Positions 12,997-38,801 are shown, counted from the first letter of the stretch. The stretch is 52,176 nt of DNA from Candidatus Micrarchaeota archaeon (GCA_043800955.1 JAZDMN010000060.1:1-52176); one strand, 5' to 3'. The notes: generated by a model from the sequence alone, not told the origin. Made by a program: numbers and translations.

Positions 12997-13101
12997 AGCC
13001 GGGATTAGCGAGTTTTCAACATGTGCAAAAGGGCCAGCACAAACCCGAGTTGGAAAGTCGTCCGGTAACCATAAAAATACATACATTATAATAAGTAATA
13101 T

Positions 13102-15144
13102 ATGAGTTCAAGGTTAACACAGCTCAAGAGAGGAGCATCGGCAGTTTCGATTCCGCTTGCGATGGCCATCTCTTCATGCGCCCCCATGTTCAGCCAGGTA
13201 CCGGCGGAGAATCCGGACCAGTACGGAAAAGGGAGAGTATTATCCGAATTCTCGAATCGGAGGAATGTCTATGCGATCCTTATCAATGGCGGCCCGGACC
13301 AGGAATTGAACGCGTCCATCGAAAATGCGAAGGATGCCCTGCAGGCCTGGGGAGTCCCGAAAGACCGTGTCCTTTCCGCGTCATTCAGCGACGGGACCGC
13401 TTCGGAAGCGAGCCTTGTCAAGACGCTGGACAAACTGGCGGGAGAGATCACATCGGAAGACCTGCTCGTCGTCTATGTCGGAGGGCATGGATACGAAAGC
13501 GGCTTCAAGCTCCAGAACGATGAGACCATATCCCATGAACGTTTCATAAGCCTGTTCGAGAGATTCAAAAAAATCCCGTCCGTCTTCATCATCGGCGCCT
13601 GCTACGGTGACAGGGCCGTAAACCAGATAATCGATGCGGGGTTCTCCGCAATAGCGATGAGCCCTGAGGAAAGGGGCCTGACGATTTCAAAATTCGGCGA
13701 GTTTTTCTGGGCGACTGTCAAGGAGGGGGTCGATCTGGACGGAGACGGGAATTCTTCGATGCGGGAGTCATTCCTAAGAGCGCTCGATAAATACAATATA
13801 GCAAAATTCGGGTGCGTTTCAGGCGACGTGACGCCCGGCACCTTCAGGACCGCATTCCTGCCGCTGACAGACCGGGCGGAACTGGACGTGGGCAATATCG
13901 TCCTTTTCATCCGCAGCCCTTCAGGAGCAAGCCCGTCACAGAAGGCAAATCTGGAAAAGCTCGATGAATTTTCCGGAGCAAGCCTGAAGGTCATGGTATC
14001 GGATTCGTCGTCCGGGTTGCTGCCAGAAGGAATCCCGGCCAGAGCGGCGGAAGCATGGAAGGAGTCGGGGGCGGCTATCATTTTCCTGAAGGGAGGAAAG
14101 GTGATGAAAGCGATAAGCGGGAATGCTGATTTCGCCACGCTTGTTCAAGGCGCCAAGGAATCGTTCGGAATCAGGTATCCCAAACTGGAATACGGCACCG
14201 AAGCCACCCGGAGGGTTGTCAGAAACAGGATGTATTCCGAACAGGCGCTGGGGTCATATCATGATGGCATATCCGATTACCAGGATTCGGTTCGCCTCAT
14301 CCACCATTCCGAAACGGGCTCGGCCATCCACCAGGAAGAATCAGGATCGGCCCGGCTTGAAATCAATAAAAAAGCCGTCCCGGCTATAAGCATCAGGGCG
14401 CCGGTCCGCATCCCCCTGTCCGGCAACGGCTATTTCTCCGACGCACTGAGGCTCGGCATCGGTTTCGAGTTGCTTGCTTTGCGCTACAGGGTACATCAGA
14501 CAGGCCCCTCCACCGGGGATAAGCCGGATTCATCTGGTGCGGGCGAGGTGGGCATCGCCGGATTCATGGTTCGCCCTTCCCTTAGCTACTTCACGACAGG
14601 CAATGGCGGCGGATCCACCACATCGACTGAGATCGGCTTTCGCGGCTCGGTTTCAGGCTACTCGATTTCGGCGCCCGGTCTTTCCGGCAGTTTCGATAAC
14701 TTCGGTTGGCAGCCGTCAGCATTCTTTCAACTCTCAAATCGCAAATCCCCGGAGGGTTATAGCCTCTTGAGATTTGAAAATATCGGCGGCGAGGGCATTT
14801 TCGGAAAGGGAAATGCATCGGCCTATAGTTCATTTTCAGGCAACTGGAGCAGGACAGTAAGGACTGTGGCTACGCCCCGGGCAATCAGCCGGCTGGGAAT
14901 TGCTGGGTATGGCGGCGACCTGAAGCTCCTAGAATGGATTGGGGATTCAGCTGCCTTGGGATTCGCCCTGCACTGTATCCATTCTCCATCAAACGGAATT
15001 TCTACAGCTGCCGGTTTCGTCGATGCGGGAGTAGGCCGCGACAATACCATGGTATCTTTGCGGATCGGGTTCATACGAGAATTTGGCGGCACCGAATTCG
15101 AACGGCTTCCGTCAGCACCCATGGTTTGGGTATCCGTCTGGTGA
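13102..15144 (+). CDS. Clan CD (caspase/legumain-like) peptidase lipoprotein with additional C-terminal domains
   Basis: Lipobox AISSC; YAILING, VYVGGHG (His) and IIGACYG (Cys) dyad; EF-hand-like DLDGDGNSS; thioredoxin-like middle; beta-strand-rich C-terminus. Confidence 0.75.
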   Translation: MSSRLTQLKRGASAVSIPLAMAISSCAPMFSQVPAENPDQYGKGRVLSEFSNRRNVYAILINGGPDQELNASIENAKDALQAWGVPKDRVLSASFSDGTASEASLVKTLDKLAGEITSEDLLVVYVGGHGYESGFKLQNDETISHERFISLFERFKKIPSVFIIGACYGDRAVNQIIDAGFSAIAMSPEERGLTISKFGEFFWATVKEGVDLDGDGNSSMRESFLRALDKYNIAKFGCVSGDVTPGTFRTAFLPLTDRAELDVGNIVLFIRSPSGASPSQKANLEKLDEFSGASLKVMVSDSSSGLLPEGIPARAAEAWKESGAAIIFLKGGKVMKAISGNADFATLVQGAKESFGIRYPKLEYGTEATRRVVRNRMYSEQALGSYHDGISDYQDSVRLIHHSETGSAIHQEESGSARLEINKKAVPAISIRAPVRIPLSGNGYFSDALRLGIGFELLALRYRVHQTGPSTGDKPDSSGAGEVGIAGFMVRPSLSYFTTGNGGGSTTSTEIGFRGSVSGYSISAPGLSGSFDNFGWQPSAFFQLSNRKSPEGYSLLRFENIGGEGIFGKGNASAYSSFSGNWSRTVRTVATPRAISRLGIAGYGGDLKLLEWIGDSAALGFALHCIHSPSNGISTAAGFVDAGVGRDNTMVSLRIGFIREFGGTEFERLPSAPMVWVSVW

Positions 15145-15240
15145 ATACGCTTAATGGATGCGATGGGTGAAATGCCGGCAACCGTGCGGGATTCGGCGCA
15201 GCATAGGAACGCATAAACGGGCGGCGGGAAAGCAGTAGCG

Positions 15241-15249
15241 TTTTTAAAC
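15241..15249 (+). promoter_or_regulatory. TATA box of the tRNA-Asn gene
   Basis: TTTTTAAAC about 30 nt upstream of the mature tRNA 5' end. Confidence 0.55.
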
Positions 15250-15278
15250 AAGATTGGCCAATCAACATCCTGTTAATT

Positions 15279-15431
15279 GCCTCGGTAGCTCAGTTGGTAG
15301 AGCGGCTGACTGTTAGAGCCTTTTGACTTAGGTCCTTCTTATGGCAAAACCCTCGGGAAAAGCCATGAGGAAAACCAAGGTCGAAAGCTTCTGAAATCAG
15401 CAGGCCAGAAGTTCAAATCTTCTCCGGGGCG
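15279..15431 (+). tRNA. tRNA-Asn(GTT) with 80-nt intron at 37/38 (intron 15316-15395)
   Basis: Acceptor GCCTCGG/CCGGGGC with G73, D arm GCTC..GAGC, anticodon arm GCTGA-CT-GTT-A^A-TCAGC, T arm AGAAG-TTCAAAT-CTTCT; intron folds into a long hairpin. Confidence 0.93.
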
Positions 15432-15462
15432 ATACTTACTTTTCTGTAATATTCAGTAACAG

Positions 15463-15894
15463 GTGGTATGGTTGGCACATTACTCGCTTTTGGTTAAATA
15501 CGAAGGGACGATTGAGGAGGCTGGGGGTAGAGTCGAGAAAATGCTTGAGCCATACTGTGAAGATATGGATGACGACTCCGATGAAAATCCGGATGCCAAG
15601 TGGGACTGGTACGATATAGGGGGCGGGTACAAAGGCTTGCTAAAGCTAAAGAAGGACTGGCCCTCAAAATTCGGGTATCCCCCGAACTCTGACCGTGTCG
15701 AGCGTGCATATGCAAAAGACGTGGATTTGGAAGGATTATGGACTGTGGCCGTGCTGGATAAAGACGGCTTCCACGAGCCAACGGATATGTATGATGACGA
15801 AGAGATGAAGAGCTGGGCGAAGGACTATAAAACGAGATTTTTGGCAGATATCAGCGACAGAACAGTTCTTGTGATAGTTGACCTGCATATTTAA
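15463..15894 (+). CDS. Hypothetical acidic protein of a phage/mobile-element type family
   Basis: Motif NPDAKWDWYDIGG and C-terminal VIVDLHI, which I associate with phage/MGE proteins; first cassette after the tRNA. Confidence 0.7.
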   Translation: MVWLAHYSLLVKYEGTIEEAGGRVEKMLEPYCEDMDDDSDENPDAKWDWYDIGGGYKGLLKLKKDWPSKFGYPPNSDRVERAYAKDVDLEGLWTVAVLDKDGFHEPTDMYDDEEMKSWAKDYKTRFLADISDRTVLVIVDLHI

Positions 15895-15898
15895 AACA

Positions 15899-15968
15899 AA
15901 TAAATCTCTGTAAGGAAGCGTCAATGATCTGGGCGTATTTACATCACAAGCTTCGGTTCTCCGGGGCG
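15899..15968 (+). repeat. Cassette-end module R1 ending in tRNA 3' copy TTCTCCGGGGCG
   Basis: Gapless 55/70 identity with 16476-16545; last 12 nt identical to tRNA 15420-15431. Confidence 0.9.
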
Positions 15969-15971
15969 TTT

Positions 15972-16113
15972 TTGTTCACTTGCCTGTCGCGAACGGCATT
16001 CCGTTCGCGAACATGCTTAAGGTCGATTCGTCGACCTGGACATCGCCTTCGGCTCGGCGTGAACAACGAAGAGAGGCATTAGCCACGGAGAATGTCGGCG
16101 CTTGCGCCGGCGC
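15972..16113. other. Non-coding multi-hairpin element lying between two tRNA-end copies
   Basis: Stems TCGCGAACGG/CCGTTCGCGA (15987-16010), AGGTCGA-TTCG-TCGACCT (16020-16037), closing TTGTTCAC/GTGAACAA (15972-16066), and GTCGGCG-CTTG-CGCCGGC. Confidence 0.6.
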
Positions 16114-16126
16114 CTTCTCCGGGGCG
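16114..16126 (+). repeat. tRNA 3'-end copy R2 (CTTCTCCGGGGCG)
   Basis: 13/13 identical to tRNA 15419-15431. Confidence 0.8.
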
Positions 16127-16129
16127 GCC

Positions 16130-16432
16130 TTATTTCTTTTTACCTGATTTTGCTGCAAGCTGCGTGAGCGCAAGTAAAAACAGGTCAGAAACAATCAATC
16201 CTGCCATCGCCTGGTTGATGGCTGCGCATCTAACACTGTCGCAATAATAATCACTTCGTCCTTCGCATAGACCCAAGGAGAAATTAAATGGATTGCACAC
16301 ATACGGGGGTTTGTCAGGATAAGCGCTCAATAGAAGATTCATGACTACGGGGTGGCCAAACCAAAACAGCATGAGGCAGACAAGACCGGCGATTAGGACA
16401 ACTTGGATGACCATCATCGCGTTTAATTCCAT
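16130..16432 (-). CDS. Small membrane protein, two TM helices with a Cys-rich loop
   Basis: ATG 16432; hydrophobic N- and C-terminal helices, 4 Cys in the loop; stop lies just beyond R2. Confidence 0.6.
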   Translation of the reverse strand: MELNAMMVIQVVLIAGLVCLMLFWFGHPVVMNLLLSAYPDKPPYVCNPFNFSLGLCEGRSDYYCDSVRCAAINQAMAGLIVSDLFLLALTQLAAKSGKKK

Positions 16433-16475
16433 AACGGGTGATATGGATGCGAGATAATTAATAAGATTACGCGGC

Positions 16476-16545
16476 AATACATCAGTGCAAGGAAGCGGCA
16501 ATAATGAGGGCGCATCTACGTCAGAATCCCCGGTTCTCCGGGGCG
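16476..16545 (+). repeat. Cassette-end module R3 ending in tRNA 3' copy
   Basis: AATACATCAGTGCAAGGAAGCGGCAAT...CGGTTCTCCGGGGCG, 55/70 identical to R1. Confidence 0.9.
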
Positions 16546-16621
16546 AAATCATCTTATCGGGTTATCCGTCCGCGGCACACCCTTATATACGGGCCCACCC
16601 CAAGGATGTTTAAGTGGAACC

Positions 16622-17527
16622 ATGATGCGCGAGATCCAGTCTGATGAGGCCAAACAGATATGGGACAGGCTCGTCCCGGAAAAAGAGGTCTGGACAGACG
16701 ATTGGGATATTCGCATGGCAATATGCAGGCAGTATGGCTACAAGCCGCTCATCCTCTATGACGGGAAGAACTTTTTCCCATTGCAGCTCGACCCTGAAAG
16801 GGGATTCTATGAGCTCCTCGGGGGGGAGAGCGTGGAGAGGAATTATGTGACATTCGACCCGGAGTTCATGAAGAAGACCGATAAGATACCGAAAAACATC
16901 TATTTCGATTTCCTGGATGAAAGATTCGAAGGCTGCATAGAAGGATTATGCCCGCAATTCTTTTTGGATCTTACGCGCATAAGCAGCATAGATGATTATA
17001 TCAAACGATTCTCCAAGGCTCACCAGAAGAATTTCAAGAGGGAATGCAGGAGGTTCGGAAGCTACGAATTCTTAAAACGGGGGACCCTTGCTGATCTTGC
17101 CGAATTGAACAGGAGGAAGTTCAAGAAAGACTCCGACTTTGCGGACGATGGCATCGCAAGTTACGCCCTATTGGACAAGGACCCGCGCACTGAATACTGG
17201 TCGGTAGTCAAGGATGGAGAAACGGCCTCCATAACCCAGTTCTTCTTCTACAACCGCACGATGTCAACCTGCATATGGGGGATAGACGAAAGATACGGGA
17301 ACTCGATAAAAATCATATTGACTGAGGCGATAACCCTCGCCAAAAGCAGAGATTGCACGAAGATAGATTTCGCTCCGACATATTCGGACTGGAAATTTTT
17401 CTACCGCCTGGATACTTCGCCCCTTTGGAGATACAAGCGGGGCGACATCCCGGATTCAGTCGAGACAACTGATTATGGCATACCGCCAGACGAAAGGGTA
17501 AGGCTCAAGGCGGAAGGAAGGCTATGA
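16622..17527 (+). CDS. GNAT/FemAB-like (Acetyltransf_6-type) protein
   Basis: DLTRISSIDDYIKRFSKAHQKNFKRE, AITLAKSRDCTKIDF, DWKFF; own TATA CTTATATA upstream. Confidence 0.7.
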   Translation: MMREIQSDEAKQIWDRLVPEKEVWTDDWDIRMAICRQYGYKPLILYDGKNFFPLQLDPERGFYELLGGESVERNYVTFDPEFMKKTDKIPKNIYFDFLDERFEGCIEGLCPQFFLDLTRISSIDDYIKRFSKAHQKNFKRECRRFGSYEFLKRGTLADLAELNRRKFKKDSDFADDGIASYALLDKDPRTEYWSVVKDGETASITQFFFYNRTMSTCIWGIDERYGNSIKIILTEAITLAKSRDCTKIDFAPTYSDWKFFYRLDTSPLWRYKRGDIPDSVETTDYGIPPDERVRLKAEGRL

Positions 17528-17535
17528 CAGAGAAG

Positions 17536-17610
17536 TGCACAAATAGTTCTTAGTAAGGAAGTGCCAATACAAAAAGCTTCTCCGCTTCACGCTGTCCCGG
17601 TTCCAGGGGG
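17536..17610 (+). repeat. Degenerate cassette-end module R4
   Basis: AATAGTTCTTAGTAAGGAAGTGCCAAT...TCAC...CCCGGTTCCAGGGGG; similar length and same motif order as R1/R3; starts 8 nt after a stop codon. Confidence 0.7.
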
Positions 17611-17690
17611 AATTTCGTCTTCCTGCTTCTTATTAAATTGTGGGAATTAATGGATAAGTATATAAACTATTCGAAGCATAGAATATATCG

Positions 17691-18893
17691 ATGCTGGCGT
17701 TCACAGATGAATTCAGAGAGCATGGCTCATATATACTCCCAAACCCAAGAGGCGTACAGGACGTACTCAATTATGCGATGTGGGCAAAGGCAGGAGAGCA
17801 GTTCATAAGAGAAAACCAGAGGCTGCCGGAAACCTGGGACGAATTCAGGACATGGTATAAACGCGCATCAGAGCCAGTTCGCATCCTGGATGTGGGATGC
17901 GGGTCCGGATATTTCGGGTATCTTCTGGCGAAACAAGGCGCTAAGGTTGTCGGCATAGATCCAGCGCTCTGCCCCACGCACAAAGAGCACCCCCCTAGGA
18001 TATATCGCCATCGGAACTTGAAACTCTTTATAGCCGGTCTGGAGGGGGTGGCATCACCATCATGTGGTCATAATCCCAAAACCAGGAGCAAGGATATCGA
18101 GGAGGATGTCAAAAAAATCGAAGCGTCCATAAAACGGTTATGGGGAATCTTAAAGGGAAAGGCAGTAGACCTCGTAATCAGCGTTTGGATGCCATATGGG
18201 ATTAATCTGACACCGGCAATCAGATCTATAGGCGCCAATGGGATTTGTTATCTCCGGAGCCACATAGGTGGCACAGGATGCGATTTTGGAGAATATGGTT
18301 CGCTATCAGGGTCTGTCCTGGATAGACCCCGTGAACCGGCTAAGGAAGCCTTGCTGCCACATTATTGGAGTTTCCATCCTGGCGAGGATTACAGAGGCTA
18401 TCGGCACTACGCCCTCAGTGCAGAGTCGGTTATAGGTTACGCACCCCAGGCATTGATCCAGTTCAAGCAAGACATCCAGCCGCCTGATTTTGAGATGAGC
18501 CATGAGTATGCCAGAGAACGGCAATTAAACCGAATAATAACCACAGAGGCGGGTTGTGATACTAAGAGATACACCAAAGAATCCATACCAGAACTTCCGT
18601 ATGATGTTCTTCATTTGGCAGATGAGGGGACGTGGTTCCAGCATTATAAAAGTAGTACGATAACACCTTCGTCGCCTCGACAGTTCAGGCTAACAAAACC
18701 AGGGCATAAATCAATGCGTTTCATGTGTTCGATGAGTTCTTCTCTGGAAGGGGAACAACGCCCTCAATTGACCGACCACCACGTTCGAAACCTTGACCCT
18801 TACGAGGCCATGCGAGTGGCGAGAATCATAGAGTCCAAACATGCTGCTGCGGCTACCCATTGCCGGAAACCCCGTTCTTCAGTTATCGTTTAA
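17691..18893 (+). CDS. Class I SAM-dependent methyltransferase domain protein
   Basis: ILDVGCGSGY, VVGIDP, VDLVISVWMP; TATA TATATAAA upstream. Confidence 0.75.
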   Translation: MLAFTDEFREHGSYILPNPRGVQDVLNYAMWAKAGEQFIRENQRLPETWDEFRTWYKRASEPVRILDVGCGSGYFGYLLAKQGAKVVGIDPALCPTHKEHPPRIYRHRNLKLFIAGLEGVASPSCGHNPKTRSKDIEEDVKKIEASIKRLWGILKGKAVDLVISVWMPYGINLTPAIRSIGANGICYLRSHIGGTGCDFGEYGSLSGSVLDRPREPAKEALLPHYWSFHPGEDYRGYRHYALSAESVIGYAPQALIQFKQDIQPPDFEMSHEYARERQLNRIITTEAGCDTKRYTKESIPELPYDVLHLADEGTWFQHYKSSTITPSSPRQFRLTKPGHKSMRFMCSMSSSLEGEQRPQLTDHHVRNLDPYEAMRVARIIESKHAAAATHCRKPRSSVIV

Positions 18894-18902
18894 GTATGGT
18901 TT

Positions 18903-18927
18903 TGCACAAATACTTCTTAGTAAGAAA
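18903..18927 (+). repeat. Partial cassette-end module R5
   Basis: TGCACAAATACTTCTTAGTAAGAAA, 23/25 identical to 17536-17560; starts 9 nt after a stop codon. Confidence 0.8.
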
Positions 18928-18994
18928 AAGAGCCAAAAAACTGATTGTTGAATGGCAATAGCCATGGAGGAGGACGACGCTGTCCATCGCTGTG

Positions 18995-19669
18995 TCACCA
19001 GACGAACGGAAGCAGGCGATAACGGGTTTTATTGCAATATTCCTTGTATCCCGGCAATTCGCGCCGAAGAACCTCCTCTTCGTTCAGGATGCGGAGGACG
19101 AGAAGCGGTACGATGAGCAAGAACGCAGGCAGAGCCCAATAGGAGCCAAGCGCTATCGGGGTGGCAGTCCACATGAGGATAGTGCCAAGATACATGGGGT
19201 GTCTGATGACGGAGTAGGGCCCGGTAGATATGACCTTCTGCCCCTTCACGACCTCGATTGTTCGTCCGGCGAAGCTGTTCTCCCGGAAGACCAGGAAGAT
19301 GAAGAGGTAACCGAGAAACACGACCACGTCCGCGGCAATCACCAATTCTGGCGGGACGCTCGACCATCCGAAGCGGCGGTCGAAACCGGGGAGCAAAAAA
19401 CCGACAATGAAAATTATTCCTGAAAGCTTTACGACCAGTTGTTGTTTTACCTGCTTTTCCTTCAGCTTCATTCTACGCTCCAAAAACTCCAGGTCGTTCT
19501 TGAGGAAATAGGTGACGACGAATGTTGCCGGGATGATAAGGATTGCCAGGTACATCCACGCCTGCCAGTAATCAAGGGTGCCCGCGGTCAGGAAAAACAT
19601 GAGGCTGAGTACGACAAATGCGGCTGGGAATAGCAGCAGGGCTCTTTTCTTGATTGCATCAGAGTCCAT
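18995..19669 (-). CDS. Isoprenylcysteine carboxyl methyltransferase (ICMT/PEMT) family membrane protein
   Basis: GQKVISTGPYSVIRHPMYLG, EEEVLRRELPGYKEY..RYRLLPFVW; start taken at MDSDAIKK. Confidence 0.9.
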   Translation of the reverse strand: MDSDAIKKRALLLFPAAFVVLSLMFFLTAGTLDYWQAWMYLAILIIPATFVVTYFLKNDLEFLERRMKLKEKQVKQQLVVKLSGIIFIVGFLLPGFDRRFGWSSVPPELVIAADVVVFLGYLFIFLVFRENSFAGRTIEVVKGQKVISTGPYSVIRHPMYLGTILMWTATPIALGSYWALPAFLLIVPLLVLRILNEEEVLRRELPGYKEYCNKTRYRLLPFVW

Positions 19670-19799
19670 CAGACGAGATACACAGTCAGGTAATAAATAT
19701 TCAGGAGGTGCACCGTTTTCCATGATGTTTTTACCAGGCCAGAAAAACCTTGGGGGGCAGGCATATAAACACCGGATTGGCAGGTAATAGGATGATCTC

Positions 19800-19958
19800 A
19801 TGGGAATGAGCAAAAAGGACTTGTCACGGAAGAAGGCCAACATCAAGGCGAGGATTGAGGATTTGGAAAAGAAGGCTAAGATGGACCCGCTCAAGAAGAA
19901 CAGGGCGCTCCATGATGAGCTCGATGATTTGAGGAAGAAGCTCGCCGAAGGGGATTGA
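19800..19958 (+). CDS. 52-aa basic coiled-coil small protein
   Basis: MGMSKKDLSRKKANIKARIEDLEKKAKMDPLKKNRALHDELDDLRKKLAEGD; TATA CATATAAA upstream. Confidence 0.7.
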   Translation: MGMSKKDLSRKKANIKARIEDLEKKAKMDPLKKNRALHDELDDLRKKLAEGD

Positions 19959-20019
19959 ACGACAGCCGGGTAAGACTTCATCCGGCAGGGCTATAAGATT
20001 TACCCTTGAAAAGGGCATC

Positions 20020-30100: not shown

Positions 30101-32695
30101 TCAGCCGGTCGAATTAGTACCACTGCTACCAGAACCGCCGGTTCCGCCTGTTCCCCCGGTTCCACCCGAACCGCTGCCAGTTCCCGTCCCGGTCGTACTG
30201 TTGTTCGGTATATACGGGGTTCCGCTTGCAGGGAGCGGACGCTCCATAAGCTCGAAAAGGCGTTTGCCATCCGGGCAGAAGTTGTTCTCGCAGCCATTGC
30301 TCAGGTAGATGAAGGCCTCGACCTTCGTCTTACCCGGGTCGACCTGGCGCGGAAGGAACGGCACTTCGCATTCCTGCACATACTGGATGAAATCCGTGTA
30401 GCCGTAGCATTCATAGGGCGGGTCTTTCTTCGGGTGGCCGTCCTGGCACCGGCTGTCGCTCGCGCCATCGGATGACGCGCAATATGTTTCATTGATCGCC
30501 CAGCTCTGCGAGAAGCCGTACGCCCAGCAGTCGCCGTTTGAAACCGAGCTTGAGCAGCGGGGGTGGTCTGCAGCCCTCGCTGTCGAGCCCCAGAAACCGG
30601 CATACATGTTGCCGGCGATGTATGCTGCGAAAAGGTTGTCCTTGTCCAGGTCTCCTGCGCCCCAGTTCAGCTTGCCCCGATTTGTGGTTATCCAGCTCCT
30701 TGCGCTCCTCATCATGCTCTCAATCTTGAGGGTGCCGATGCAAATCGAATCCGAAGGCACGAATGGATTGAACCGCGGATTGCAGCCTTTTGCGCCGCTC
30801 AAATCAAGAGTGCGGAAGCCCGAACGGTCGAAAACATCGAAATAGGGGCCGTCTACCCCATCTGGATTGACCGAGGCCGGCCAGAACGTGAATGGCGGTT
30901 CCAGGCTCTGCATAATGCCGACTGCACACCAGCGCCAGTCCGGCTGCGCGGCAGGAGGGGCGTTTGTGAGGTTCGCATTGCAGTTGCCATCCGGGTCGTA
31001 CATCTCGTCATAGGCCTTATCATAGCATTCGTCCTTGCCAGGCCCTGGCTCGAAGCATCCCGGGCCGTCATAGCCCGCTCTGCAGACCTTTGCCGCAGAG
31101 CAGGGATTGAAGCCGCTTTCAGTCAGTATGAATGCGCGCACCAGCATCGGGTCGAGATTTCGCGCGCTGGCCCATTGGTTGACTTCCGGGAAGCCGGTGC
31201 AATACGTATCTGGCGGAGTGCCGCTAGAAGGATGAAGGCTCGCGAAGATGCTGCTCAGCGGCCGACTGGCGTTTACCATCAGGCATGCATCGCACGTGAA
31301 GAGCAGGGGAGCCGGGGCACGCAGCTGGTTGGTCTGCTGCTGCATGATGTCGCGACCTGAGAATGCGAAGCCGCGCATGTAGTCCTGGTTCTCATTGGCG
31401 TTGCATGCCACACCTGACTCGTTGCCGAAGAGTATCTGCCTGTTGCCGGAGTTCTGGCCCGAGACGTTGGTCATTATCTGGCAGCCGCCATACCAGGCCT
31501 GCAGGCGGGACTGCGTCCTGCCCACTCCACAGTTCGTACAGTTCAATGGGTTCGTGACACCTACCCCACCACTCGTGTTGAACGAATACGGAGCGATGCC
31601 AATCACGCCCCGCTTCTTCAGCGTTTCCACGCCGAATGGGAAGAATGCGCCGTATGCGGCGACAACGTCGCTTTCGGTCCAGTTGCATGAATTGTCGATG
31701 TCGCTGGTTCCGGGGTCGAAAAGGACATATGGGATTAACGAGGGCTTGCTCCAGTTGTAAAGCGAATACATTGAGAAGTTCGTGGCCTGCTGGCGTACGC
31801 GCGCAGGGTCGCATGAATGGACATATCTGCCGTTGATGCCGTATGCCACATAGTCGACCTTGTCCGCATCTGAGCCAAGGGCAATCATCACATCGTTAAG
31901 CGCCTGGAAGTCGTTTATTTTCGGCGCGACCGCGATGAAGCAATAGATTTTGCTGTTCGCCCGGTCGTTCATGCACTCCCGGTCGATTGCACGGACCTGG
32001 TTTGCTATCTCAGGGGCCCTGTTCCTGTCGAAATCCATTTCCGTGACAACGATAACCGGTCCGACAGGGCCGCTTGACAGCCTCCCCAGGAAAACATCGT
32101 CGCCTTCTGTCCCGAGTATCCTTGCGATTTGCTCGGTACGGCTGATGTTGATATTGGTGCCGTTGCTGTAGAGGATGTAGACCGGGATGATATCCTTGCT
32201 GAGGAAGCACATCGAACGCATGGAATCAGGAGTCAGGTATGGCGACTCGTTTGTTGCCACAAGCCACTGGACCGCCATGTTCAGGCGGTCGGAACAGAAT
32301 GTGTTTGCAGTGCCGAAATCCCCGAACGTGGGGCCCTGCCCAATCATGAAGGGCCGCACAGACAGGCTCGGGTCGCCTGAATTGTTGTAATTTGCATATC
32401 TTGCCATCTGCGCAGGCGTGCAGTTCTTGTCGAAATAGCAGTAGCCGCCTATGAGGTTGGTCAGGGGGCCGAATATGTTCGTGCCGTTCCTGCAGACCAT
32501 GCACCAGCAGCTTCCAGGCTTGCAGTACTCGACCATGGAGGCGTTGTTTATCGCCACGCGGCTGAGGCCGTCGCGGTATTCCTGCTCGAAGAGCGATGAG
32601 CCGCCGTTAAGCCTCTGGAGGCAGCCTGCCAGTATGAGGGCACCGCCGACAACCGCCAGTAGCGCCAGTAAGGATACTGCTGGTCTCATATGCAT
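30101..32695 (-). CDS. Large Cys-rich secreted/lipoprotein with a lytic transglycosylase (SLT/GH23)-like domain
   Basis: Signal LILAGC; ASARNLDPMLVRAFILTESGFNP and AVGIMQ; possible GH-like barrel N-terminal to it; Gly/Thr/Ser tail. Confidence 0.75.
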   Translation of the reverse strand: MHMRPAVSLLALLAVVGGALILAGCLQRLNGGSSLFEQEYRDGLSRVAINNASMVEYCKPGSCWCMVCRNGTNIFGPLTNLIGGYCYFDKNCTPAQMARYANYNNSGDPSLSVRPFMIGQGPTFGDFGTANTFCSDRLNMAVQWLVATNESPYLTPDSMRSMCFLSKDIIPVYILYSNGTNINISRTEQIARILGTEGDDVFLGRLSSGPVGPVIVVTEMDFDRNRAPEIANQVRAIDRECMNDRANSKIYCFIAVAPKINDFQALNDVMIALGSDADKVDYVAYGINGRYVHSCDPARVRQQATNFSMYSLYNWSKPSLIPYVLFDPGTSDIDNSCNWTESDVVAAYGAFFPFGVETLKKRGVIGIAPYSFNTSGGVGVTNPLNCTNCGVGRTQSRLQAWYGGCQIMTNVSGQNSGNRQILFGNESGVACNANENQDYMRGFAFSGRDIMQQQTNQLRAPAPLLFTCDACLMVNASRPLSSIFASLHPSSGTPPDTYCTGFPEVNQWASARNLDPMLVRAFILTESGFNPCSAAKVCRAGYDGPGCFEPGPGKDECYDKAYDEMYDPDGNCNANLTNAPPAAQPDWRWCAVGIMQSLEPPFTFWPASVNPDGVDGPYFDVFDRSGFRTLDLSGAKGCNPRFNPFVPSDSICIGTLKIESMMRSARSWITTNRGKLNWGAGDLDKDNLFAAYIAGNMYAGFWGSTARAADHPRCSSSVSNGDCWAYGFSQSWAINETYCASSDGASDSRCQDGHPKKDPPYECYGYTDFIQYVQECEVPFLPRQVDPGKTKVEAFIYLSNGCENNFCPDGKRLFELMERPLPASGTPYIPNNSTTGTGTGSGSGGTGGTGGTGGSGSSGTNSTG

Positions 32696-35800: not shown

Positions 35801-37656
35801 GCTGAACCGTGGAGGTTGGACCTCTTGAGGATGTCCATGTCCAGGTGGCCCATCGATGCGAGCTCTGCCTCGCTGATGTCGAATTTCACGCCCATCTTCT
35901 TGTAGAGCTGGCGCAGGACGTACCTCATCTCATCGCGCAGCGTCTCGTTGTGGAGCGTGCGGTAGAGGTGGGCCATCTTGTCGTTAATCGGGAACATCGA
36001 GCCCACTATGACCTGTGAGGGGTGCTTGTTTATCTGGCCCGAGAGCCAGGCAGCCGTCGGCGACGTCTTCGCCTTCGCTTCGAGGTCGGCTATCGCGTGC
36101 TTCCCTCCGAGCATCTCCATCGTGGTCCTGGTGGTCGAGCGCACTAGGCTCGGGGCTTCCGTAACAATGGACTTGCCCATCCTGCCGACTACCTTTACGG
36201 TTCTGAAGGCCGAATCCGTTCCGGCCATGACGACACCGCTGAGTATCGCGTACCTGTTCGCACCGTAGAACTTGTTGAGCGTGCCCGTCAGCCGGTAGTG
36301 CATCGCGCTTCTCTGGGCAACACCCGGGTGGGCTGTGAGCACTTCAAGGCTCTGGAATGTCCTCATGCTGTAGAGGTAGTCTTTGAGCGTCATGCCAAGG
36401 AGAGCCTGCCTACCGCCTGCTGCTTCGAGCGCCTGGAGCACCTGTGCGACTGTTTTGTGCTCGGCATCTCCCCAGTGGTAGGGGAGGCCAGCGAGGCGCT
36501 GGAGCGCGGACCCGCGTATGCCGACCGAAGCTGCCGCCGTGACGAATGCCTCGGATATCCTCCTCTGCTGTGCGATATCCGCCGGACCGCCTACGGCTGC
36601 GCGGTCTCCTGCCGTGCCTTGCGCTGAGCGTGCTGAGCGGACCGCGTTGTCCACTTCTGAGTTGCCGCGCATCCTGTCCTGCAGTATGCGGGTAGTGGCT
36701 GCGGCTGCTGTTGCCGCTGCGGCCATCTTGGCTCCCGTGGTCCTCTTCATTTCCGTATAACCGAAAGGTGCGAGTATCTGGCCGCTCGCGGACACGCCCT
36801 TTGGCGCTGGAAGCCTCGGGGTCGTTATGTCAAGGAGCGAAATCGGGGATTTGCCCGAGAAATACAATGATGCCAGCAGCAGGCCCATTATCATGAAAAG
36901 GCCCACGCAGGGCAGCGTTCCGCCCGCGCTCACGCACTGGGTGGTGGAACCAGTGCCCGTGCACTGGCCTCCCGAGTCTGCGACGCTCACTATGAAGTTC
37001 TTTAGATCCTGGGCGAACTGGGTCGCCGGAGTGACATGCGCGTTGCTGTATTCGTATTCGGCCGAGCTCTGGCTGATTGCCTGGTCCGGGAGCGGCACGA
37101 ATGTCGCCCTCACGAAGACCCTGGCGCCCTCCGTCACCGGAGCGAGGTCGCACTGGCCGTAATAATAGTTGTATGGGGCAGGGGTATCCGAGCCCTGGAC
37201 AGGCCTGTATGCGATCGCGACCGTGCTCGCTATAACATCCTCGCAACCTGGAATAACCGTCCACTGGCCGCGGTATGCGTTTCCCTGGGGGTTGAAGTAT
37301 TCGACTATGAAATGGGCGTCCTGGAGAGAGGTCAGGTTCATCTGGTAGTCCCTTGAAGCGGCTGTGCGCTCAAGGGCTGCCCTCTGGATGCATCCCTGGC
37401 GGTCCGGGTCGCTTGCGCAACCGGCCACAATCTCCTGCATCACCACCCGTATGTCCGTCCCGCCGGTGCTTGTGGCAGGCTCGAAAACGAGCACGCTGAG
37501 GTTGATGACCCTGCCTGCGCTATCTGCAGGAGTGATTATCACCTGGCTCTCCTTCAGGTTCTCCTGAGGGAAAAGCTCGTCTGCGAACACCGCTGTGGCT
37601 AGCAGAACGAGCAACAAAGCACCCAGAACGTATTTCGCTGATGTCATACCGAACAC
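32842..37656 (-). CDS. 1604-aa membrane-anchored protein of unknown function with C-terminal Zn ribbon
   Basis: Signal peptide, ~220-aa outer domain, TM VGLFMIMGLLLASLYF, long helical region, CPKC...CKNAAC. Confidence 0.85.
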   Translation of the reverse strand: MFGMTSAKYVLGALLLVLLATAVFADELFPQENLKESQVIITPADSAGRVINLSVLVFEPATSTGGTDIRVVMQEIVAGCASDPDRQGCIQRAALERTAASRDYQMNLTSLQDAHFIVEYFNPQGNAYRGQWTVIPGCEDVIASTVAIAYRPVQGSDTPAPYNYYYGQCDLAPVTEGARVFVRATFVPLPDQAISQSSAEYEYSNAHVTPATQFAQDLKNFIVSVADSGGQCTGTGSTTQCVSAGGTLPCVGLFMIMGLLLASLYFSGKSPISLLDITTPRLPAPKGVSASGQILAPFGYTEMKRTTGAKMAAAATAAAATTRILQDRMRGNSEVDNAVRSARSAQGTAGDRAAVGGPADIAQQRRISEAFVTAAASVGIRGSALQRLAGLPYHWGDAEHKTVAQVLQALEAAGGRQALLGMTLKDYLYSMRTFQSLEVLTAHPGVAQRSAMHYRLTGTLNKFYGANRYAILSGVVMAGTDSAFRTVKVVGRMGKSIVTEAPSLVRSTTRTTMEMLGGKHAIADLEAKAKTSPTAAWLSGQINKHPSQVIVGSMFPINDKMAHLYRTLHNETLRDEMRYVLRQLYKKMGVKFDISEAELASMGHLDMDILKRSNLHGSAELAAAEAEIRRILSNSALSGQDKLSALGRLAESHGAHLDHQMLTFAQRIESIEKTAEPDHMKMISLQQALEEQNKVRMAAKAGGRHDDAYICHVGGESLKGSQVWETMVLRTMIWDAENGFLRGGLKEELLSARLNTANRLASLDPTTAMGQLPEHMRNPSQLKAVAERNRQDLIALFSEEGRQAFTQYSKGKGIASASIEEVVKFMYGGLMPRIGEIDKNTGKMMWRASDKELQLPTTYTNVDVKRHWVAALDARENFAIAQSTESRFTRSYAPYYNASIEAQANRMAGSASWTVEQRTQVVKKLAISETLMQDFESRFNSHFGQNTYGTTRETTRFYAGIMAGFMEKALQEKGMENNHPDMTFLSKMDLTSPKDLAKLKDLMNTHKDAYQKVITRDMSYDDVAKANKAVVMLGEGGYAYYKKGMMLSDADRIMAGETALRDEKGVLRKFIPEDVVVSFGSRDDLQMQFQKSRSSKDPAEWAGFVDSAVKWTKEGGYNYEKERVLASVLWEYAQKTYDYGRFWKESAITVEAKRQVTPVAPSVLRFFGVEGHSVGPMIKPFRDIGMHGGDYISKVAMASGGELLRTSYDITPTSSQLRMHSFQLASKIQSGQILNGLSEEEKTAYRAVAAQHGAFVQVWQYAIDRNPWRISSSFGTHQAWAASFHYGPAVPFNVKDNLRGFMGKGEYMNFTLGPYGFPMDLAGKMLRPYVSMMRGMQMSMQGYASKWDSTGDALRQWNYTEPRMLEAMQALNPMSFKWFGGKNSDTMSKLNVFGGSLERHQLAGHDYMVGLRQAPQDIFLQKKGVYANARTEDVNPGETFYDYRMTMKADAPMAEYLFRSKEASYLYDKDLYKSAMDNTTRRTVSAESLAIRRDQELRGFGVLQNSLFGWANPLAFIWHMPVPLFPQSATPKEIAAKYVARSKHGYGGGGFGSNLQHMAEGMGQGLSKLVQPQKLSMVVYCPKCGMSNYRGSMCKNAACKQALY

Positions 37657-37729
37657 CTAATCACAACTGCTAATATCGCGCTTTTCCCGCTTTATAAAGG
37701 TTTATGTTCATAGGGTATATGAAAAATAC

Positions 37730-37754
37730 AAAAACTACAAAGTTTGTAGTTTTT
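37730..37754. promoter_or_regulatory. Perfect inverted repeat, putative operator
   Basis: AAAAACTACAAA-G-TTTGTAGTTTTT in the divergent intergenic region. Confidence 0.65.
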
Positions 37755-37784
37755 TGTTGTAATAATATAACAGAGGTGGTTTAA

Positions 37785-38801
37785 ATCAAAGGCCCAAACC
37801 CGTTTGCGCCATACGAAAGCGACCCTGAAGGCATCAGCGGAAGGAAAGAGGAAATCAGGGCCTTTGCGGCATTTGTTAATGCGGCATCGAATGGCCAGGC
37901 CGGGCTGCTGCTCTTAGTGGGGGGCCCTGGATGCGGAAAAACCGCGATAATCCGCCTATTCCAGGCCGAAGCGGAGAAGGCAGGCATGCTCGCACCAAGC
38001 GTGAAAGCCGAGAAGGGGGAGGACGAGAAGGACCTGGCGGGGAAGGCCTACCAAGAGATGGCGCTCTCACCGGAATTCCGCAGGGAAGGGAAATCCCCGG
38101 GGAATTTCAGGGAGCTTGCCGAGGCCGCCGAAAAGGCCGGGCGTAAAAAGTTTGGAGCAGTAATTTTCATTGACGATATAGACCAGATGAGGAATGAAGA
38201 TAAGGCGATTGCTTCCCTGCAGGGCGCGCTCAAAGCCGGATGGGGGAAAAGGAAGGTCGCATTCGTTGTCTCTTCGACAAGTGAAATCACGGTGCAGTCC
38301 GAGATTATGAGGGAGGTTGCCCTCGGGCCGTTTGCAGAATTAGAAGCGAGGGAGATGATAGAGCATGCCCTCAAGAAAGGCCCGCCGAAAATGGGCGAGG
38401 AATGCCTGCAGTCTATTTTGGCCGACAGCGGTGGGAATCCCCGGCTCCTCAAGACCGTCTGCTATAGCATATACGAAAGGCTCCGCGAGAATGAGAAGGT
38501 CATCAGCAAAGGGCACTATCTCGCGTACCTGCCTCAGATAATGAGCTCGCTGTCAAGGGATTGGTTCGGGCGGCTGTACCGGGATATTCCGCAGGGGGAG
38601 CGCGCAATACTGCGCATCCTTACCAAAGACGAGGAAGGCATGCATGTCTCGGACATCGCGAAAAAGGCGGGCAAGCCGCTTGGGCCGATCACGGCGCTGA
38701 CAAAGAGGCTTCTCGACCGCGGCCAGATTGTGAGAATCGGCCGCGGGAAGTATCGTATATTCTCGAAACTGTATATGAGGTACGTCTCCCAGCGGGAATG
38801 A
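37785..38801 (+). CDS. Archaeal AAA/P-loop ATPase with C-terminal winged helix; apparent ATC start
   Basis: NPFAP, SGRKEEI, GGPGCGKT, IFIDDID, SGGNPRLL, wHTH; SD GAGGTG 6 nt before ATC, which follows an in-frame TAA. Confidence 0.8.
   Translation: MKGPNPFAPYESDPEGISGRKEEIRAFAAFVNAASNGQAGLLLLVGGPGCGKTAIIRLFQAEAEKAGMLAPSVKAEKGEDEKDLAGKAYQEMALSPEFRREGKSPGNFRELAEAAEKAGRKKFGAVIFIDDIDQMRNEDKAIASLQGALKAGWGKRKVAFVVSSTSEITVQSEIMREVALGPFAELEAREMIEHALKKGPPKMGEECLQSILADSGGNPRLLKTVCYSIYERLRENEKVISKGHYLAYLPQIMSSLSRDWFGRLYRDIPQGERAILRILTKDEEGMHVSDIAKKAGKPLGPITALTKRLLDRGQIVRIGRGKYRIFSKLYMRYVSQRE

Follow-up and report, generated by a model that had tools for sequence, protein, structure and literature searches.

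Small integrase-less units stacked at the tRNA-Asn gene of a Candidatus Micrarchaeota archaeon: a probable integration hot spot

Introduction

How did a series of unrelated short genes, set apart by copies of the 3' end of a tRNA, come to lie downstream of a tRNA-Asn gene in a genome of Candidatus Micrarchaeota? The locus was analysed within a stretch of 52,176 nt (GCA_043800955.1, JAZDMN010000060.1:1-52176), here called the window. The array starts at the tRNA gene at position 15279 and extends to a membrane methyltransferase gene at 18995. The original prediction for this locus, made from the sequence alone, was an integron-like array of single-gene cassettes, bounded by a conserved module of about 70 bp and repeatedly inserted at the tRNA by an integrase acting in trans. 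With a probability of about two in three, the comparison with related genomes indicates that integrative elements of one family have used the tRNA-Asn locus as an integration hot spot and that non-autonomous derivatives of them are stacked there. Integrase-bearing members of this family were found at the same tRNA gene in two relatives. Genomes are referred to below by the letter G and a number, the host assembly being G000 (1.34 Mb, 82 contigs, 54% GC, 87% complete).

The tRNA-Asn gene and the candidate att core

The tRNA-Asn(GTT) gene occupies positions 15279-15431 of the + strand (Rfam RF00005, 56.1 bits). In the RF00005 alignment it contains an insertion of 81 nt after the anticodon loop, at the canonical intron position. 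ARAGORN with default settings called no tRNA in the window; when introns were allowed, they were present in 11 of 17 tRNA calls across the assembly. A homologue of the gene is present in 35 of 41 related genomes. The intron itself (15316-15396) is a member of a repeated family, GAGCCTTTTG...GGCAAAACCCTCGGGAAAAGCCCTGAGG. A second tRNA of the same assembly, on contig C72 and with TGC as its anticodon by eye, has an intron of this family (30125-30250). The family also has two copies in tandem on contig C33 (4548-4749) and many in related genomes.

The last 12 nt of the gene (15420-15431) have the sequence TTCTCCGGGGCG. Exact copies of this 12-mer start at 15420, 15957, 16115 and 16534, all on the + strand, which confirms the three recurrences of the tRNA end proposed originally. 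Two further matches with one mismatch are found elsewhere on the - strand. The six matches with at most one mismatch compare with 0.52 expected, and six were reached in none of 100 shuffles. The direct-repeat test for a tRNA-targeting element found 12-nt repeats in the window and a tRNA that is intact at 56 bits. On the strength of these repeats, the 3'-terminal 12 nt of tRNA-Asn are the predicted att core, serving as attB.

The module and its copies

Two of the core copies are preceded by a common arm of about 75 nt (75-95 nt in the full elements described below), here called the module. Module R1 (15893-15956, core copy 15957-15968, + strand) ends unit A, and module R3 (16470-16533, core copy 16534-16545, + strand) ends unit C. 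The segments 15899-15968 and 16476-16545 align without gaps over 70 nt with 79% identity, as had been proposed. Module R4 (17536-17611, + strand) retains the whole layout with a decayed core, GGTTCCAGGGGGA, and is 80% identical to R1 across 30 nt. R5 (18903-18927, + strand) consists of the left 25 nt of the module and has no core; 23 of the 25 positions (92%) are identical to the left part of R4, and a weaker likeness, seen by eye, continues for about 15 nt.

A profile built from the four copies gives E-values from 1e-15 to 1e-10 on R1, R3, R4 and R5 and no match better than E 0.029 in the rest of the 1.34-Mb assembly. The profile search that had been suggested as a check thus places the module at this locus alone in the assembly and in 8 of 40 genomes of the genus (E <=0.01). 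At the level of the order it is found in 8 of 151 genomes (E <=0.001), and the module-bearing genomes all belong to one family (7/73 versus 0/77 in other families). The strong matches (E 8e-5 or better) adjoin tRNA-Asn, core copies or, in G145, another tRNA. Four weaker matches were observed in G019, G013, G003 and on contig C72 of G000. A search of metagenomes yielded one contig, L062.

Integrase-bearing elements in related genomes

The role of the module is suggested by two relatives. In G024, tRNA-Asn is followed by a 390-aa tyrosine integrase, an AAA_25 helicase, module and core, the hairpin called unit B, and a 301-aa gene; the last two are also present in the window. The integrase gene starts 64 nt past the tRNA (PF00589, E 4.1e-27; PHROG integrase, E 3.7e-36), the 469-aa helicase is AAA_25/DnaB-like (AAA_25, E 5.7e-29), and the element ends in module and core 8.3 kb from the tRNA. 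The element of G054 has the same layout, a length of 11.2 kb and an integrase 73% identical to that of G024. The two elements have three to four further open reading frames (ORFs) in common, and their right-hand halves are unrelated. Both are flanked by an 11-12-nt repeat, and both integrase genes are whole. Relatives with larger, integrase-carrying islands had been named originally as a finding that would count against the idea of minimal cassettes, and these elements of 8.3-11.2 kb, which end in the same module, are such islands. The attachment-site character of the module is upheld: because module and core close integrase-bearing elements at tRNA-Asn in G024 and G054, we take the module to be the arm on the attR side of an integrative element of the classical kind that targets tRNA genes.

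An inverted copy of the module motif lies beside the integrase start in both G024 and G054 (z-scores 6.1 and 3.2 versus shuffles). It is located in a common sequence, CTTCCTTATAAA..GG, that probably holds the integrase promoter. As the elements end in arm and core and start with the inverted arm motif, the excised attP would consist of arm, core and inverted arm. In both full elements the module is adjoined by reverse-strand ORFs that, by eye, seem to encode membrane proteins.

With TIGR02249, whose cut-off is 265 bits, the cognate integrase reaches 53, and with NF011946 it reaches 40.5 for a cut-off of 435. By these scores it is a generic tyrosine recombinase, far under the cut-offs of the XerA and integron-integrase models. 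No match to the G024 integrase or to the module pattern was found among viral contigs.

As predicted, the integrase is not local. None was found in the window, and the cognate type was not found in the 87%-complete assembly. The three PF00589 matches of the assembly lie on other contigs (C8, C37 and C55), and none has more than 41% identity to the cognate type. Two of them are members of its broad family. The C55 integrase (37472-38532) is 38% identical to that of G024 and lies beside tRNA-Leu(GAG), and the C37 integrase region (50011-53352; 41%) is about 2 kb from tRNA-Ser(TGA). Neither of these two resident integrases shares the arm motif; they probably belong to further integrated elements of this genome.

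The occupancy of the site varies among relatives. In G004 the tRNA directly precedes the 301-aa gene, in G017, G023 and G003 it is followed by unit B, and G018, G024, G054 and the window carry differing inserts.

Small units without an integrase

In the window, the core copies split the region into unit A, unit B, unit C, the 301-aa gene with R4, a 400-aa methyltransferase-like gene with R5, and then a PEMT-family gene. Boundaries formed by copies of the tRNA 3' end were part of the original prediction and are found here. Its description of single-gene cassettes fits units A and C, which have exact cores on either side, one ORF each and no recombination gene inside.

Unit A (15432-15968, 537 bp, + strand) contains the ORF 15463-15894, encoding an acidic, phage-like protein of 143 aa, followed by R1 and the core. 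The protein matches the PHROG family phrog_10079 (E 1.9e-12) and is 36% identical to two IMG/VR contigs. It has three metagenomic homologues (84%, 60% and 87% identity) and none in 175 other genomes of the order; against genome contigs it gave just a 26-residue match in an unrelated bacterial metagenome-assembled genome. The GC content of the unit is 46.4% versus approximately 56% in the flanks. That the content of the locus differs between relatives is seen in G017, which lacks the 537-bp unit: there unit B begins, with TTCTTGTTCACTTGCC, directly after the tRNA core, and in the window the order is tRNA core, unit A, a core and TTTTTGTTCACTTGCC. Because G017 joins the tRNA core to unit B at the point where the window holds unit A between two cores, the boundaries of unit A are precise.

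Unit C (16127-16545, 419 bp) carries a small membrane-protein ORF on the - strand (16130-16552), R3 and the core. No Pfam or PHROG family matched this ORF. The unit has a GC content of 47% and the layout of small units in G054, G053 and G148. The units of the window have 46-49% GC, below the 55-56% of the flanks and close to the 46% of the G054 element, whose host has approximately 63%; this composition supports a foreign origin of the units. The orientation of the ORFs in the array is mixed, the inter-module sequences are unrelated, and the cargo differs between units. No within-genome paralogy was seen for any of the cassette genes.

Similar units were found in relatives. Unit C' of G054 (575 bp) has a reverse 140-aa ORF, the unit of G053 (448 bp) a reverse 108-aa ORF, and that of G148 (830 bp) a reverse Cys-rich ORF. 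The unit of G018 (1.8 kb) has two ORFs, one of them DUF3800, and in G103, which belongs to another genus and has an intron-less tRNA-Asn, a unit of 1194 bp contains one FecR-domain ORF. On the metagenome contig L062, a unit of 857 bp consists of a PEMT-like gene exactly between two copies of module and core; this gene (2082-2783, - strand; PEMT/ICMT family) is 33% identical to the PEMT gene of the window. An intact integrase at one end is absent from the units of the window, G018, G053, G103, G148 and L062 and present in G024 and G054. Finally, a unit of about 1.2 kb at a different tRNA in G145 has the integrase-side arm and promoter, about 90% like those of G024 by eye, and no integrase; it ends in a related module and contains only small ORFs. 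As judged by this arrangement, the G145 unit is plainly a deletion derivative of a full element.

The unit B hairpin

Unit B (15969-16126, 158 bp, + strand) is a non-coding hairpin. Its outer stem, GCCACGGAGAA/TTCTCCGGGGC, is formed by the core copy 16115-16126 as the 3' strand and an upstream complement, and encloses a perfect inner hairpin whose sequence is wholly different between copies while the pairing is kept. Across eight copies the consensus fold comprises 17 pairs, and compensatory changes are seen at 7 of these. With a covariance model, unit B was detected in 15 of 40 genomes of the genus, mostly beside tRNA-Asn. It directly follows the tRNA in G017, G023 and G003, and likewise, by coordinates, in G006, G011 and G012; it follows module and core in the window, G024 and G054; and it occurs in tandem in G048 (three copies) and on contig C55 of G000 (two to three copies). 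No Rfam family matched it. The structured non-coding element of the original prediction is indeed a hairpin, and it is a conserved feature of the locus across the genus.

Unit B could be a mimic of the tRNA acceptor and T-stem, a secondary attB, or a small RNA. Since units C and C' lie beyond unit B, which looks ancestral, we infer that its core may act as a second landing site (attB).

Two further loci with unit B copies differ from those above. On contig C55 (18634-18800, - strand; L058), where no tRNA is visible, a 14-mer resembling a degenerate tRNA end precedes two unit B copies in tandem, and a GTTTCGGGTTTCGGG motif comes after them; in G003, a motif similar to it stands in place of the first 17 nt or so of tRNA-Asn. 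The pair and its motif may represent a rearranged att site or a further mobile element. In G010 (L023, 3129-5781), tRNA-Asn is separated from two unit-B-like copies by a 2.6-kb insert that lacks the module, and a degenerate core ends each of these three segments. The insert has several small reverse-strand ORFs, one of which (107 aa) is ArsR-like by eye. Because it lies at the same tRNA and has no module, the hot spot may be used by other types of elements too.

The distal part of the array and the upstream region

The 301-aa gene (16622-17527, + strand) had been described as GNAT-like. Its product has no Pfam match; one homologue is named in its source as a BioF2-like acetyltransferase domain protein. 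Those of its 62 homologues that have source names come from Candidatus Micrarchaeota or Ca. Bilamarchaeum, by which the host is most likely a DPANN archaeon of this lineage; McrA, checked as a pointer to the lineage, was not found in the assembly. Copies 64-73% identical adjoin tRNA-Asn, unit B or the module in five related genomes: the gene lies 12 nt past the tRNA in G004, after tRNA and unit B in G023, after unit B in G024, and after module and core in G018 and G053. With copies in 16 of 39 other genomes of the genus, it is accessory yet widespread. Because it is found at the tRNA-Asn locus in the five genomes just named, it is not obviously a cassette. A decayed module after the gene was sought at five loci of relatives; none was detectable (z <=3.0).

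The next gene (17691-18893, + strand) encodes a 400-aa protein with an S-adenosylmethionine (SAM)-methyltransferase motif at residues ~58-98 and weak Pfam methyltransferase matches (best E 5.4e-6, slightly below cut-off). No copy was found in the tRNA-Asn loci of relatives compared (L021-L028, L043-L045). The segment is absent in G018: some 40 nt, by eye, lie there between the stop codons of the 301-aa gene and the PEMT gene. The right border of the array is a gene for a PEMT/ICMT-family membrane methyltransferase (18995-19981, - strand; PF04191, E 1.2e-10), whose position after the 301-aa gene is conserved in G018. This border gene may itself be island-derived.

Upstream of the tRNA there is a 680-aa caspase-domain-like gene (13102-15144; PF00656, E 3e-4, slightly below cut-off). 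The region 5' of the tRNA (12997-15278) varies too: in G010 the tRNA lies about 40 nt after the conserved upstream gene, and G023 and G017 have approximately 1.2-1.3 kb of different sequence there. In G054 (L059, reverse complement of 1814-1868), a duplicated 12-nt 5' fragment of tRNA-Asn and a perfect hairpin lie directly upstream of the intact tRNA-Asn.

Origin of the array

We propose the following scheme. The 3' end of tRNA-Asn would be the attB of an integrative-element family in Micrarchaeota-like DPANN archaea. Complete elements, 8-11 kb long, would have their tyrosine integrase gene immediately beside the tRNA, encode a replication helicase of the AAA_25/DnaB-like kind, and end in an arm of about 75-95 nt and a 10-12-nt copy of the tRNA end. 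Strand exchange would occur inside the 12-mer, at a position that can be placed only by inference; integration would rebuild the tRNA and leave arm and core at the far end. Later integrations at an intact core copy, that of the tRNA and probably that of unit B, would push older units outwards or flank them. The window would then hold integrase-less derivatives alone, namely units A and C with one intact ORF, arm and core each, and R4 and R5 as older vestiges around the methyltransferase gene, with unit B, the hairpin found widely at this locus within the genus, lying among them. The non-autonomous units would have been placed by an element-borne integrase and would now be immobile unless a cognate element enters the cell.

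Within this framework we lean slightly and tentatively towards the possibility that the units were reduced from full elements after integration. Reduction is favoured because the G145 unit is a deletion derivative and because small units lack the distal inverted arm, which is missing in units C, C' and the unit of G018 and marginal in unit A (z 2.7). It is also favoured because reverse-strand ORFs adjoin the module in both full elements, as they do in four small units (C, C', G053 and G148); this is the layout that leftovers of the right end would show. Tandem integration at one locus and loss of the integrase after integration have been described in archaea (PMC8371274), and stacked elements with partial tRNAs in Prochlorococcus (10.1101/2020.12.28.424599).

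Several observations weigh against the proposed scheme. No integrase fragment was found by tblastn with the G024 integrase at the loci of the window, G103, G145 and G148, nor was other backbone debris seen in the small units. Seven single-ORF units (A, C, C', G053, G103, G148 and L062) have a compact build, their ORF being apparently whole and the flanks short; since random deletions would often truncate genes, this speaks against reduction. The genes of the small units resemble no gene of the two full elements, and nine small units were found for two full ones. The position of units C and C' beyond unit B needs the extra assumption that the core of unit B serves as attB. Finally, R4 lies beyond the 301-aa gene, where five relatives have no module, and simple outward stacking, which was also part of the original prediction, does not explain the segment formed by R4, the methyltransferase gene and R5. 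As the left parts of R4 and R5 are nearly identical, the comparison suggests a separate and more recent event, possibly recombination between modules.

The best-surviving rival is true cassette capture, which we consider rather unlikely. According to this explanation, circles of one gene with arm and core integrate and excise at core copies, and the 8-11-kb elements are helpers that supply the integrase in trans; in function, such a system would be comparable to integron cassettes or satellites. The excess of small units, of which there are nine in seven genomes or contigs, counts in its favour, as does the fact that the seven single-ORF units have at most ~110 nt of non-module flank. The cargo is of unrelated kinds (phage-like acidic protein, small membrane proteins, FecR-domain, PEMT and DUF3800), the gene of L062 is placed exactly between two copies of module and core, several units are in tandem in the window and in G054, small units are also in tandem on L062, and the three core copies outside the tRNA are all exact. 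Furthermore, the units of G103 and G053 retain, by eye, the core-proximal 16 nt or so of the other arm, ATAnTCnnAAGTGnAT, and because of this their excision would rebuild a minimal attP. However, no unit was found twice, be it at different places or in two genomes. The missing inverted arm, the G145 derivative and the right-end layout of four units are likewise difficult for capture. The cognate integrase is also absent where small units occur (best matches 41% in G000 and 40% in G018, none in G053; the assemblies are incomplete). A bolder form of this explanation is an independently evolved gene-cassette system of DPANN archaea, in which single-gene mini-circles, each with an arm of 75-95 nt and a 12-nt core from the tRNA end, form arrays at tRNA-Asn and at a tRNA-mimicking unit B as second landing site and the integrase resides on a helper plasmid or virus. 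Such a system would parallel integrons in function, with a tRNA-targeting integrase as its basis; we regard it as unlikely.

It is much less probable that the module recurs at gene ends as a transcription signal, be it promoter or terminator, or as a gene for a small RNA, the copies of the tRNA end being incidental. This could account for the position of R1, R4 and R5, which start 5-10 nt past the stop codons of the ORFs ending at 15894, 17527 and 18893, in line with the distance of at most 10 nt reported originally. It could also account for a TTAAATAA-like stretch upstream of GTAAGGAAG in the longer copies and for a 6-bp hairpin that spans the core in most of them. However, this terminal hairpin is the sole consensus fold in an alifold analysis of ten modules, which yielded no long stem, and single-sequence z-scores are mostly near 0. 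The tRNA alone passes an Rfam scan of the window, other matches having E 0.26 or worse, far under the gathering thresholds. The module is confined to the tRNA-Asn locus within the assembly and forms the far end of integrase-bearing elements. Nor does GTAAGGAAG look like a general genomic signal, with only 15 occurrences in the assembly and 0-2 of longer motifs. A peptide-coding module was also considered and rejected: some copies have stops in every frame, and no frame is open across all ten.

The least credible explanation is that site-specific integration played no part and that the repeats arose from duplication of local segments or from unequal homologous recombination. The likeness of R4 and R5 on either side of the methyltransferase segment and the tandem unit B copies in G048 and on C55 might point to it, but the sequence between modules is unrelated, the module copies are 15-28% divergent while the cores are exact, and the same module ends integrase-bearing elements in other genomes.

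Comparison with known systems

Integrase-less elements bounded by att sites are known in streptococci as cis-mobilizable elements (CIMEs), which occur beside the accretion of ICEs (elements both integrative and conjugative) and IMEs (integrative and mobilizable ones) at the 3' ends of tRNA and other genes. The hot spot proposed here resembles them: its segments are bounded by att sites and lack recombination genes, stand in tandem with integrase-bearing elements of the same attB or come from such elements, and presumably could move only with a cognate integrase. The differences are the DPANN host, the size of the units (0.4-1.8 kb, mostly one gene), the conserved arm of 75-95 nt, and the absence of conjugation functions.

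Archaeal elements with a tyrosine integrase are divided into the non-split, pNOB8-type and the split-integrase, SSV-type. No Int(N) or Int(C) fragments of the split type were seen at the window locus, and the integrases of G024 and G054 are whole. The non-split archaeal elements offer a closer parallel: they have a whole integrase next to attL and duplicate the tRNA 3' end as a direct repeat, and for them integration in tandem and later loss of the integrase have been described (PMC8371274). Two features set the tRNA-Asn case apart, namely its stack of integrase-less units with one gene each and its palindromic attP of arm, core and arm. No description of the tRNA-Asn element family was found in the literature searched on Micrarchaeota integrases and on the genus.

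The tycheposons of Prochlorococcus (10.1101/2020.12.28.424599) are similar in that a tyrosine recombinase lies by a tRNA, successive integrations push older elements outwards, partial tRNA copies lie between cargo segments, and degenerated elements persist. They differ in the bacterial host and in remnants that include fragmented integrases, none of which were seen here, whereas the present units are of a single gene with a long conserved arm. The islands of Dehalococcoides are similarly arranged in tandem at the 3' end of a small-RNA gene with direct repeats of that end between them; they are multi-gene, bacterial and targeted to the tmRNA gene (ssrA).

With integrons, the locus has in common arrays of ORF and site, unrelated cargo and one primary anchor site; the layout of ORF and site is seen in units A and C and also in the pairs of the 301-aa gene with R4 and the methyltransferase gene with R5. 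However, there is no IntI beside the primary site, and the anchor is a tRNA end instead of an attI beside intI. The module has no attC-type fold (R''/L'' and L'/R' boxes), and ORFs are in both orientations. Together with the scores of the cognate integrase, far under the integron cut-off, this removes the integron-like parts of the original prediction.

Significance

What is new here is that a tRNA-targeted element family of a DPANN archaeon has non-autonomous units that are unusually small, with one gene each; tandem integration and loss of the integrase are already known. The DPANN archaea have tiny genomes and no genetic system, and the ways in which they gain genes are poorly known. The locus shows a concrete route: a tRNA-Asn hot spot, an identifiable integrase, a predicted attP defined by arm, core and inverted arm, and very small cargo units. 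If the units are fossils, they form a clean record of repeated integration and reduction, which is nevertheless ordinary biology. If they can move in trans, no integrative cargo units described in archaea would be smaller, and they would form a natural cassette system whose parts, namely the integrase, the 12-nt core and the ~75-nt arm, would be testable as a genetic tool.

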